From IMG/VR virus record IMGVR_UViG_2698536454_000004: 25,537 nucleotides of DNA, one strand, 5' to 3'. Position 1 is the stretch's first letter. Each line of letters opens with the position of its first letter. The position numbers are program-made. The stretch is from a virus. Lineage: Duplodnaviria; Heunggongvirae; Uroviricota; Caudoviricetes. Shown here one piece after another: positions 21,001 through 25,537 of the stretch.

Positions 21001-24000
21001 CTGGCTTTGAAGTACGGGTCTTCGCGTTTTTCTGTGTACGTGCTGACGGACGGCGATAAGCGCAGGGAAAGCTCATCCCATTTTTCCCGCAGCTTCGACG
21101 GGCTGAGCACGTTACGGCACCAGAACGGATCGCGGCTGACGCGGCTGTACATCTCGCAGATTTGTTTGTGAGTACGACCATCCTGCACACACATCAGGCG
21201 AATTTCGTTTGCCCAGGCTGTCCAGTTCGGTTCTTTGGGACGAACCACCTCGCCGTCACATTCGGCAGCCTGCTCGTACAGGGCGATGATTTTTTTCCAG
21301 AGCCACTGTGCGCAGGTCAAATCATCCTGCGTCCCCCACTGGCGCTTTTTAGGGCTGAATACAACCGCATCAGGATGGCGAGTTAAAAAATCCTGTTCAG
21401 CCGTCTGCGTGTCCGGTTGCGAAGCGTCCGGACGAGAAGGTTTTTTATCTGACGGATCATGTTTTGATTTTACTGACGGATCCCCGCCAGATTCTGACGG
21501 GTGAAAACCCGCTTTTTTGCCAGATTTCGACGCATCAAATTTTGACGGGTCAGATTTTGATGCGTCAGATTTTGACGGGTCAGAATCTGACAGTTGAGAA
21601 AATGCCGCTGCCTGAAGCTTCGCAACGTTAAGCTGATAAACATTCGACGCATTGCGGTTACCCTGGCGACGCGCCTTACGCGTTAACCAGCCTTCTGCTT
21701 CCAGCCGTGCGATAGCCGTTCTGACGGTACTCATCCCCGCGCCAATCTGACGGGCAATGGTTTCAATTGATGGCCAGCACACACCTTCGTCATTACTGAA
21801 ATCAGCCAGGCGGGCCATAATTGCCACGCTGGATAACTTCATGCCTGATGCAGCGCAACCATCCCATACATAGCCGGTTAATTTAGTGCTCATGACCGAC
21901 CTCTATTTCCCTGAATTTACGACGAAACTGTTCGAGCGGACTGAAGCATTCATGCTCATAACCTTCGCGGAGGTAGATAACCCGTTGTGTTTCCGGCTCC
22001 CAACGAATGACTCTGACGGGCACTCCGTAGTGATCTTTGAACCAGCGGTTAACTTGTCGCAAAGGACTGTCTCCTTCTGCCGGTTGAAATCACCCACAGC
22101 CCACTCTGCAAAGCTGTGGGTTACAATTTCCCTGTCACCTGGTACATTCACTGCATAGCAATATTCCACCTTCGCTTTTCCACCCGGAACAGGAAGCGCA
22201 ATCAGTTGCGAGCGACGGTAGTGTGTTGTTAAACTGTTCATGCGTTAGTTTCTCCACAGTCACGACACGCCACGGCGCCCGGAGCTGCACACTCGCGGGC
22301 GTCATTACTTTCTGAAATGCAAAAAATTTTGTAGACCAGTGCTGCATGCTCCTGCAGCTTCGAAATTGAGAGGTAGAGCTCGTCATTAATTGCTGTCTTC
22401 TCATGCGGTTCCACTACACCGTCTTCGATTGCTGAACGAATCTGTTTTGAATAACTGCCGATCTGTTCAATGACTTCCAGCAGACGCTGGTTAATATCGG
22501 CGTTGTCCACATCCTCGACGTCAGGAAGAGACACAAAGACGCCATTTGCAGACTGCGCCACAGCATCAGCAATGAAGTGAGTTCCACCAGCACGTTGCAA
22601 AATCATTGCCCATCCCAGCGGGAAAATCTGATCGCCATCGGCACGAAGGCGGTTAAATAATGCGTTCTCTGTTACATCCAGCCAGTCAGCAGCTTCAGCG
22701 TAACCCCCCGGCAACGCTGCGATAGTTTTTCTGACAGCTTTCACGTACCACTCAGGCTGTTTGTCTACTTTCCAGTGATGCTTACCCACGGTTAGCCTCA
22801 TCGTTCTGTGGTTTCTGTTAATCGATTTATCCATTAGATTTTTCATAAAGCTCAGGTTTAAATGGCAACCGTCCGCAAGTTCTATATGCAGCTTCTGCTG
22901 CACGTCCTTTTGGAATTAACTGGCCCGGACGGTTTCGCCACTGATAAACGGCTTCAGTTGTTATGCCGAAAAAAGCAGCAACTTTCTCAATACTGCCGAA
23001 GTAGCTTTCGATATCGTCAGTTGTCATACGCCCTCCAAACTAAGTTTTATTAGATGCTAATTACAAATCTATCTTTGGTCAATAAAAACTAAGATTACTT
23101 AGTAATTAAAGAAATGGTGCTCCTATGGAAACGGTTGGTCAGCGTATAAAAGCTCTGAGAAGAGTTACCAGAACGTCCCAGAAAGAATTGGGTAAATTTT
23201 GTGGAGTAAGCGACGTTGCTGTGGGGTACTGGGAGAAAGACATCAATACCCCTGGTGGGGAGGCACTTTCGAAATTAGCGAAGTTCTTCAATACGTCAAT
23301 AGATTACATTCTTTATGGTGCTGAGTTTGAAGGCAAACTCGTCACAAACATGCGCAGAGTTCCTGTAATATCGTGGGTTCAGGCTGGGCAGTTTACTGAG
23401 TGCAGGGCAGCAGAAGTGTTTAGTGAAGTGGACAAGTGGGTAGATACATCATTAAAGATTGGTGATAACTCATTTGCATTAGAGGTTAAAGGTGACTCCA
23501 TGACTAACCCTAATGGCCTCCCAACAATACCAGAAGGCGCAACAGTGATTGTAGATCCAGATGCAGAACCTCGTCATGGAAAAATAGTCATCGCTCGACT
23601 TGATGGAACAAACGAAGCTACAGTAAAAAAATTAGTCATCGATGGCCCTCAAAAGTTTTTAGTGCCATTAAATCCTCGGTATCCCAACATCCCTATCAAT
23701 GGTAATTGCCTTATCATTGGTGTAGTCAAAGGAGTTCAATACGAACTCTAAGACCTCTCTTCTCTAACTAAGGCACCGAACTAAGAAAAGTTTGGTGTTT
23801 TCTCTTGCCATAATAACTAAGTTAAGTTAGATTTTATGTCAAAGATAACGAACAGGCAGGACGCCCACGAAGTAGCCGCCTGGGGCATATGAAGTCCAGG
23901 ATGATTCGTTAGCAACAAAAAAGCGCCCTACAGGACGCTTAGCTCTTTAACAATCTGGTCCCCATCAACAAGTAACTGATAACTTGAGGAGATGTGAAAT

Positions 24001-25537
24001 GCACAAAACAGAACCCAAAATCGTCGCGCCTGGCTACACAGATGAGGAAATTTATGAGTGGATGACAAAGAAGCTGGCAGCTATAAACCAGCTTCGTGAA
24101 GTGCTGTCTTATCGACAGGAAACAATAGACTCCTTAAAAAAACTGGATCAGGAAATCACGGTTTTATCACAGGATGTTACTTTAGATATTGTGCAGACAA
24201 ATTAGGATCCCATTCATTTTCGTCAAAATCATCAAAGTGATGAATTTGTGATCTCCAGTCTCGATAATCTAAAAATTTCTGGGCGGTTACGCTTATTTTA
24301 TCAAGTGTGAGTTCATCCTGAATTGAAAGAAGAAGTTCATCAAATTTCATCTCATTAATCTGTTTTGGCATCCAGTGATGCTTCATCAGAATAAGGTGAA
24401 CCAGAGCCTTTTTCCCATTCAACTGATTATAGGGAGTGCCGAATTTCTTCCGGTGCTCATGTAAGACAAGGTCCAAAAGAGTAAGTAATGTTGCCCTTGA
24501 TTCAACTTTGCTTATTTCGACTGATGACACTACCCCACTGATTTCAATGCCCCGATACTTTCCAACATTTTCACAGTGGGATTTGTACAGCGTATAGATA
24601 TTACCGGACATTTCTTTTCCTTTTGCGTTGTTGGGGATAACCAGATTAACCGAATCCTTGTTGTTGGGGAATAACCAGGTCCACCTCGCCTGATGTGGCT
24701 AAAAGCAGGCACATAACAGCTAAGTATTTTCAACCAGAGAGAATCCTTAGCGTTGTGGTGAATGCGGCTCAGCGCACGCGGGTTAAGGTTGAGGCTGACA
24801 GTCGACCTTCTGTGGATACCCACCCGCCTGGTGTGCAACCTTCGCCAGGCACCGGGAGGCACCCGGCACCACAACTTTATGCTGTGTGTAGTCTTGGCGG
24901 TACCAGCTTGTACCCTTGCTTCCGGCTGGTACCGTCCTTTTTACAAAACAGAGAAGAGCATCACCGGACGACGGGCTCATAACCCAATCCATCCGGGCGG
25001 CAGTCACCGCAGGTGTTCTTCTCTGTTTTGTGGAGAAACTAACCGACCTTGCAGGGTCGATATGATGAGGAGCAGCAAAATGGCTAGCGAACGCAGTACT
25101 GATGTGCAGGCATTTATCGGGGAGCTGGACGGCGGCGTATTTGAAACCAAAATCGGCGCAGTTCTCAGTGAAGTCGCTTCCGGTGTGATGAACACGAAAA
25201 CCAAAGGTAAGGTCTCGCTCAACCTGGAAATCGAACCGTTTGATGAGAACCGAGTGAAAATCAAACACAAACTCTCATATGTTCGCCCGACTAACCGCGG
25301 GAAAATTTCCGAAGAAGACACCACCGAAACGCCGATGTATGTCAATCGCGGTGGTCGCCTGACTATTCTGCAGGAAGACCAGGGACAGTTACTGACTCTT
25401 GCCGGTGAACCTGACGGAAAACTCCGCGCAGCAGGTCGTTAATATCGTTTTTAATTAACTGATTATTTATCTCATCACTGAATATCTTTATATAGTGAGG
25501 ACTTATTATGTCTCAGAACTTAGACGCAACCGCAATT

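Follow-up and report, generated by a model that had tools for sequence, protein, structure and literature searches.

A covarying leader RNA and a hairpin/boxA module in the early-left operon of a prophage without N

The early-left operon examined here belongs to a virus of the Caudoviricetes (IMG/VR record IMGVR_UViG_2698536454_000004). The DNA analysed, a stretch of 25,537 nucleotides (nt) referred to as the window, is an SfV/SfIV/e14-type prophage. The operon lacks an N gene, as seen from its complete counterpart in phage vB_EcoM-689R6, and its leader, transcribed from the left promoter (pL), includes two features that were missed by the preliminary description of this DNA: (i) a conserved structured RNA of 69 nt (23845..23913), which is a previously unannotated and widespread element, and (ii) a module in which a hairpin is joined to a boxA of the type found in rrn operons. 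N-independent control of elongation by these two cis RNA modules is the preferred reading, at roughly even odds (probability about 0.5), and would probably need no phage protein.

The 5' leader RNA (23845..23913, + strand) is present as a single copy in the window and scores 90.2 bits with its covariance model (R1). Helix P1, in which 23846-23852 pair with 23905-23911, closes the structure around a conserved core (GGCAGGACGCCCACGAAGUAGC, 23855-23876), a second helix P2 (23879-23883 paired with 23896-23900) with a conserved 12-nt loop, and an AUGA linker (23901-23904). In a gap-free alignment of 91 distinct 69-nt variants, 90.7% of the pair cells are paired, a value that none of 500 shuffles reaches (68.6% after shuffling), and the covariation score is 0.574 compared to 0.170 when shuffled and no more than 0.124 when the partner columns are slid. 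Changes on both sides are found in 11 of the 15 pairs, with P1 variants such as ACGAA/TTCGT, GCGAA/TTCGC, CCACC/GGTGG and GTCATC/GATGAC and P2 variants such as CCTGG/CCAGG, CCGGT/ACCGG, CTACC/GGTAG, TCCGG/CCGGA and CCCGA/TCGGG. The same two helices are recovered by RNAalifold. The G.U wobble pairs of the helices occur on the pL strand only; therefore, the motif is an RNA of the pL transcript. P1 lies 12-15 nt past the -10 hexamer in 71 of 107 promoters (13 nt in the window), and the leader RNA therefore begins about 5-9 nt into the transcript.

The leader RNA is found in hundreds of prophages of enterobacteria that differ in immunity. A distant BLAST search with 23760-24010 reveals that ~60 nt right after pL are kept across phages of unrelated immunity regions and hosts, including SfV, SfII, SfIV, ST64B, Pectobacterium ZF40, Yersinia YeP1-3, Pantoea AH07, Citrobacter phiNP, mEp237, SPN3UB, SEN34 and Klebsiella phages; mEp460 is a further carrier. 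The element of ST64B, ZF40 and YeP1 is 110-130 nt past the stop codon of a cI-like gene and ~10 nt past a good promoter. Exact matches to the 22-nt core (GGCAGGACGCCCACGAAGTAGC) are found in at least 119 viral contigs, one copy in each. Among bacterial contigs, taken as one genome per species, 77 of the 100 loci listed first are full-length (69-92 bits), the rest being chance 18-mer matches, and the full-length copies represent at least 20 genera of Enterobacterales. The e14 prophage of E. coli K-12 carries the motif between ymfK (cohE) and ymfJ (71.2 bits; NC_000913 1202109-1202178, corresponding to 7110-7179 on the minus strand of record L352), such that the leader RNA could be studied in a standard laboratory strain. 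Full-length copies are also noted outside of Enterobacterales in records titled Pseudomonas lundensis and Chryseobacterium sp. (L277 and L265), which may represent contamination or mislabelling. Sequence shared with SfV stops at both borders of the motif, and sharing with SfIV starts at the 5' border; thus, the borders coincide with mosaic junctions and the motif behaves as a discrete module. A further conserved leader element (GCGCAGnnGGTnnnAACGTTC), accompanied by a small covarying hairpin, is found 3' of the first motif in mEp237, ZF40 and many prophages (L006 3560-3620, L005 3600-3690 and many IMG/VR loci); this second element is absent from the window.

No Rfam 15 family matches 23845-23913, even at E values up to 5, nor are the copies of ST64B, SfV, ZF40 and YeP1 matched. 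Rfam is without a put family, and HK022 putL likewise gets no match. No mention of the core sequence was found in the literature searched, a search outside of which lay King et al. 2011 on put-like RNAs. Mimicry of ribosomal RNA (rRNA) by the leader core was considered and dropped, as the similarity does not rise above that of shuffled controls.

The second feature of the leader lies ~10 nt past the first. The boxA core GCTCTTTAACAA (23942..23953, + strand) is the sole exact copy in the window, compared to 0.01 expected by chance, and matches the boxA consensus GCUCUUUAACAA at 12 of 12 positions; its longer form GCTCTTTAACAAT (23942..23954) agrees with the E. coli rrnB leader in all 13 bases. 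The exact boxA placed about 100 nt after the promoter in the preliminary description is confirmed, at 109 nt past the -10 hexamer. A hairpin (23921-23940), the stem of which is kept in 65 module variants, ends 1-2 nt before boxA; the same order of hairpin then boxA is found in the rrnB leader, where the hairpin ends 3 nt before TGCTCTTTAACAAT. On the minus strand, this hairpin (23940..23921) is followed by a U6 run (23920..23915) and forms an intrinsic terminator (23915..23940), while the + strand form, just ahead of boxA, is weaker and has a C.A mismatch. The mismatch is conserved and corresponds to a G.U pair on the minus strand. Folding energies in the window are -11.5 kcal/mol for the minus strand compared to -7.5 kcal/mol for the plus strand, and the minus-strand hairpin is more stable in 64 of the 65 variants (mean -10.9 versus -6.7 kcal/mol), with the U-run on the minus strand. 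The stretch 3' of boxA is conserved, being CAATCTGGATATCC in most variants and CAATCTGGTCCCC in the window, and differs from that of rrnB (TGTGTGGG), to which no counterpart is seen; a boxC is not recognisable. Read from these sequence properties, the hairpin would be mainly an intrinsic terminator for convergent transcription, here of a 144-amino acid (aa) open reading frame (ORF), and boxA would serve the pL transcript.

A module scan with GGACRCTTNGCTCTTTAA finds at least 119 viral contigs. Among the matches listed, 92 of 121 loci have the module 3' of the leader RNA; where the leader RNA is absent, the module is located 170-880 nt past a same-strand cI-like gene in 18 of 24 loci. As it follows a cI-like gene even without the leader RNA, the module is considered a feature of pL leaders. 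The genes downstream of the module vary by locus although its own sequence is kept, and the end of a convergent gene often directly adjoins it.

The promoter from which both features are predicted to be transcribed is TTGCCA-17-TAGATT (23805..23833), which is found with an overlapping operator as noted in the preliminary description. The left operator and promoter region (oL/pL, 23767..23833, + strand) has ACTAAG half-sites at 23767, 23780 and 23816, one hexamer being inside the promoter spacer. All six ACTAAG hexamers of the window are in two clusters flanking cI (23039-23103 and 23767-23821), which are evidently, judging from the sequence, the right and left operators (oR and oL). With 9 of 12 consensus matches, pL is located 54 nt past the cI stop codon and is predicted to start transcription at ~23840. 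Promoter matches of this quality are not rarer than chance in the region (4 found compared to 4.3 expected); thus, the pL call is credible because of its context (the cI stop codon and the ACTAAG clusters) and not because of match quality. Overlapping the oL half-sites is a terminator of the cI transcript (23770..23801, + strand; 13-bp hairpin with U-run, -15.1 kcal/mol, z -3.9), and equivalent terminators follow cI in ST64B, ZF40 and YeP1. The same operator/promoter sequence is found in phage LLS. The direction of the early-left operon is set by cI, both being on the + strand as taken in the preliminary description, and in most leader-RNA loci a cI-like gene is just upstream on the same strand.

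The absence of a recognisable N, proposed from the window alone, is borne out by related genomes, by a scan for arginine-rich ORFs and by the literature. In vB_EcoM-689R6 (99.6% identical), the full operon consists of the 68-aa ORF, the convergent 144-aa ORF, yfdP, yfdQ, an HD hydrolase gene, xis and int, after which comes icd, the attachment site used by e14. No + strand ORF between pL and int of this phage has five or more Arg in any 14 residues, a threshold equal to the count in the lambda N motif. The same search for an arginine-rich N-like ORF, suggested as a check in the preliminary description, was run over the full operon and 133 related loci and finds none that is credible: arginine-rich ORFs are within 4 kb downstream in only 3 of the 133 leader-RNA loci, and all three look spurious. 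N is stated to be missing from SfII, SfV and SfIV in the SfIV genome paper (PMC3851460). The noted lack of boxB holds as well, as there is no lambda-type boxB hairpin 3' of boxA, only a 5-bp A/U-rich stem across the ribosome-binding site, and the conserved hairpin (23921..23940) instead lies upstream of boxA. In the early operon of the right promoter (pR), no boxA-like sequence is found between pR and Q, which leaves the prophage without a second nut site, and no strong intrinsic terminator is found ahead of Q; cro and cII are separated by 37 nt. That a lambda-type N gene and its boxB lie just outside the window is therefore highly improbable: complete, near-identical phages end the operon with yfdP-yfdQ-HD hydrolase-xis-int and reach the attachment site at icd without N, the operon is without an arginine-rich ORF, and no boxB follows boxA. 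The suggestion that an N-like gene lies beyond the window is thus refuted. Gp17/nut of mEp021 was set aside as a parallel, as it is from a different phage group and not relevant.

The first ORF of the operon (23999..24205, + strand) is assigned to phrog_1744, of unknown function, and is not N-like. It is confirmed as a 68-aa acidic protein without an arginine-rich motif (net charge about -4, only two Arg), with its ATG at 23999 rather than 24000 and a ribosome-binding site (GAGGAG) at 23986-23991. That this ORF might be an unrecognised antitermination factor is unsupported, as the first gene varies widely from locus to locus, both for boxA and for the leader RNA.

The pL transcript continues past the 68-aa ORF, first antisense to the 144-aa ORF and then as ~470 nt of non-coding RNA with a high degree of structure (z -5.8). 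The latter includes an STnc100-like small RNA region (24722..24947, + strand; Rfam RF02076) that ends in a strong intrinsic terminator. The STnc100 match extends over the full model length, with 43.4 bits (E 2.4e-7) compared to a gathering score of 47, and the SfV copy scores 39.5 bits against the same gathering score. This region is the sole match of the Rfam search, made at the gathering threshold and with permissive E values, and none is found over boxA. The terminator, placed at 24895..24942 in the preliminary description, has a 13-bp stem (24896-24936) and a U5 run (-23 kcal/mol, z -4.3). Thus, before yfdPQR-xis-int, RNA polymerase meets two obstacles: an untranslated stretch of ~870 nt, which is antisense to the 144-aa ORF and includes the STnc100-like region, and one strong terminator.

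A mechanism by which these obstacles may be overcome is proposed. The module hairpin would stop transcripts that arrive from the convergent 144-aa gene, and boxA on the pL RNA would load NusB/NusE to form, with NusA, NusG and SuhB, a complex like those of rrn operons and the leaders of clustered regularly interspaced short palindromic repeat (CRISPR) arrays, with no phage protein needed. Such a Nus complex would shield RNA polymerase from Rho over the ~870 nt between the 68-aa ORF and yfdP. In rrn operons, Nus factors at boxA are known to confer resistance to Rho. For CRISPR arrays, experiments have shown that boxA counters Rho without N (PMC7665894). This boxA/Nus anti-Rho step is the best-supported part of the scheme and is held with moderate confidence from sequence identity, geometry, strand and position. 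With less support, the leader RNA is envisioned to influence in cis the polymerase that transcribes it, with a function analogous to that of HK022 putL, and might help the polymerase past the terminator (24896-24947) to yfdPQR-xis-int. By analogy, the leader RNA may modify RNA polymerase. The leader core is unchanged across phages with different early genes, which suggests a host target, and a put-like cis effect is favoured because of the 5' position on the pL transcript, the constant core and the lack of both a conserved protein partner and N-like ORFs.

The put RNA of HK022 is a cis-acting antiterminator that works on the zinc-binding domain of the RNA polymerase beta' subunit and requires no protein factor. 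A put model (R2) was built from HK022 putL (rebuilt from the genome by the residue numbering of the cryo-electron microscopy paper), HK022 putR and the annotated putL of HK639, which is clearly of HK022 type. Model R2 recovers HK022 at 99.7 and 72.5 bits, reaches at most 11.9 bits in the window and finds nothing in vB_EcoM-689R6 or LLS, while model R1 finds nothing in HK022 or the whole HK639 genome. The leader RNA is therefore rejected as a put homologue, with no homology of sequence or structure detected by covariance models in either direction. The put RNA consists of two adjacent stem-loops with no closing helix (PMC9378689); in the leader RNA, by contrast, a conserved core and a single hairpin are enclosed by a closing helix. 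What is shared with HK022 and HK639 is the setting: an N-less lambdoid phage with a structured RNA of ~70 nt that is transcribed first from pL. The leader RNA is, furthermore, a single left-operon copy as annotated for HK639, with no second, putR-like copy in the window or related loci. The RNA-based, put-like mechanism raised in the preliminary description thus fails as to homology, and a different conserved RNA occupies the putL position.

The hairpin/boxA module compares with three other systems. It is like the rrn leader in the 13-nt boxA identity, the hairpin 1-3 nt upstream and the long untranslated RNA downstream, and by analogy would similarly rely on NusB/E, NusA, NusG and SuhB without a phage protein. 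It differs from the rrn leader in that boxC is not recognisable, the hairpin doubles as an opposite-strand terminator and the context is a prophage early operon with an intrinsic terminator downstream. Similarly to the N-nutL systems of lambda and P22, boxA is in a pL leader directly after the repressor gene; however, the window is without N, without boxB after boxA and without a nutR counterpart, and its boxA is of the consensus rrn type whereas the lambda type is weaker. The third system is the stand-alone boxA upstream of the Salmonella CRISPR arrays, which protects non-coding RNA from Rho with no N (Stringer et al. 2020, PMC7665894). The window boxA differs from the CRISPR-array boxA in its genetic context, as it is linked to a convergent terminator and lies downstream of a further conserved RNA.

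Several observations weigh against the proposed scheme. Because the sequences were collected by exact-match searches, the invariance of the 22-nt leader core is in part a product of the collection, and single-base variants exist. Only about 17% of the leader-RNA loci have the boxA module, and SfV has the same untranslated stretch yet no boxA module. Given the minus-strand bias of the hairpin, part of the conservation of the boxA region could stem from its being the 3' end of convergent transcripts. Complexes of the rrn type are known chiefly for action against Rho rather than against intrinsic terminators, which they are not known to overcome efficiently. In ST64B, ZF40, mEp237 and YeP1, no convincing same-strand intrinsic terminator is found within 3.5 kb past the leader RNA by a scan that misses large-loop terminators, that of the window included. 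Lastly, LLS has the same pL and downstream terminators but no leader RNA, boxA or put; in this phage (L127 7030-7610), pL is joined directly to the STnc100-like region, with two terminator-like hairpins. The density of terminators downstream of the leader RNA is about that of a control operon, a comparison that is uninformative as the finder missed the large-loop terminator of the window.

Some of these points are shared by alternative explanations. That the leader RNA has a role other than elongation control, e.g., as a 5' stabiliser or processing signal, a ligand sensor or a trans-acting RNA, is unlikely. Such a role would agree with the four relatives that are without consistent downstream intrinsic terminators, with LLS, which manages without the leader RNA, and with a three-way junction and conserved core like those of small aptamers. 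It is at odds with the lack of a conserved expression platform or terminator past P1, where downstream sequences differ, with a distance to the first ORF that ranges from ~25 nt to more than 600 nt across loci, and with the finding that no known riboswitch or ribozyme family in Rfam matches the leader RNA. For the module, it is unlikely that the hairpin and boxA are only the terminator, or 3' end, of convergent accessory-gene (moron) transcripts, with the pL-strand boxA functionless. The stability and U-run of the minus-strand hairpin, the convergent genes that end beside the module in many loci and the conservation that runs past boxA (CAATCTGGATATCC), as would fit a 3' untranslated region, all accord with this explanation. 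They are opposed by the 12- to 13-nt identity to the rrn boxA in the strand and position of nutL (0.01 expected per window), by a hairpin-to-boxA spacing that mirrors rrnB and by the presence of the module in pL leaders with or without the leader RNA.

The leader RNA could instead be a nut-like site for an unrecognised phage or host protein, not arginine-rich, that carries out antitermination or other regulation, a proposal that appears rather improbable. A conserved core between variable helices is typical of protein-binding RNAs, and mEp237 and mEp460, which carry the motif, are from the mEp collection that is described as Nus-dependent (PMC11893012); this link is a lead, not evidence. Clustering of the ORFs of 168 loci, however, reveals no protein cluster common to leader-RNA loci save for the upstream repressor and replication genes. 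Despite wholly different early genes, the core stays unchanged, whereas N-nut pairs co-vary, and each phage has one leader RNA copy. A broader proposal, that the 69-nt leader represents a second class of phage RNA, unrelated in structure to put yet analogous to it in reprogramming host RNA polymerase in cis, and is used by the large group of N-less lambdoid prophages of Enterobacterales, in some cases combined with a hijacked rrn-type boxA, is offered tentatively and is rather doubtful at present; the group in question includes SfV, SfII, SfIV, ST64B, ZF40, mEp237 and e14 of E. coli K-12.

The operation of the early-left operon without N in SfV/ST64B/e14-type phages has so far only been remarked on or speculated about, and at stake are the contents of the operon, namely recombination and accessory genes, xis and int. 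There are now two concrete candidates that can be mutated: the covarying leader RNA, and the rrn-type boxA with its convergent terminator. Were the leader RNA to modify RNA polymerase, put would be the only earlier phage RNA class of this kind; even otherwise, the leader RNA is a structured RNA that is widespread and occupies a key regulatory position. If the reading of the boxA module is true, the N-independent use of Nus factors would extend from rRNA operons and CRISPR arrays to prophage operons.

Relatives of the window and its remaining genes complete the picture. The region shares 99.6-100% identity with Escherichia phages vB_EcoS-569R4, vB_EcoM-689R6 and Kati, and 98.5% identity with Shigella phage SfIV starting at 23847; parts of it are also found in SfV, SfII and many Stx2c phages. 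The cI-type repressor gene (23125..23751, + strand) encodes helix-turn-helix and S24 peptidase domains (PF01381 and PF00717). On the minus strand, cro (22827-23027; PF14549) is followed by a CII homologue (22238-22789; PF06892, E 1.5e-13). This homologue is clear in the window, whereas the SfIV genome paper (PMC3851460) considers SfII, SfV and SfIV to be without cII. The yfdP homologue (25080..25442, + strand) is the first gene after the ~870 nt without + strand coding sequence, and yfdQ starts next at 25509 (+ strand). The pR operons of SfV (L001 3813-4001) and ST64B (L004 1242-1430) have Rfam matches to C4 antisense RNA and isrK, a P1-like secondary immunity system of which no element is found in the window.

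Between the terminator of the STnc100-like region and yfdP is a long + strand hairpin formed by perfect arms of 15 nt (24943-25031; -49.1 kcal/mol, z -8.6). The hairpin is also conserved in SfV and LLS. It has no U-run and is therefore no terminator, but may be a site of processing. The convergent 144-aa ORF (24177..24611, minus strand; phrog_5286) overlaps the 3' end of the 68-aa ORF, and neither of these ORFs nor YfdP has a Pfam or PADLOC match. An overlapping plus/minus ORF pair of unrelated genes is seen at the same position in SfV, YeP1 and e14 (ymfJ/ymfI). Upstream of the 144-aa ORF, in the minus-strand sense, is a direct repeat (GGGGATAACCAG and GGGAATAACCAG, 34 nt apart; 24633-24685) that may be a control site for this ORF.

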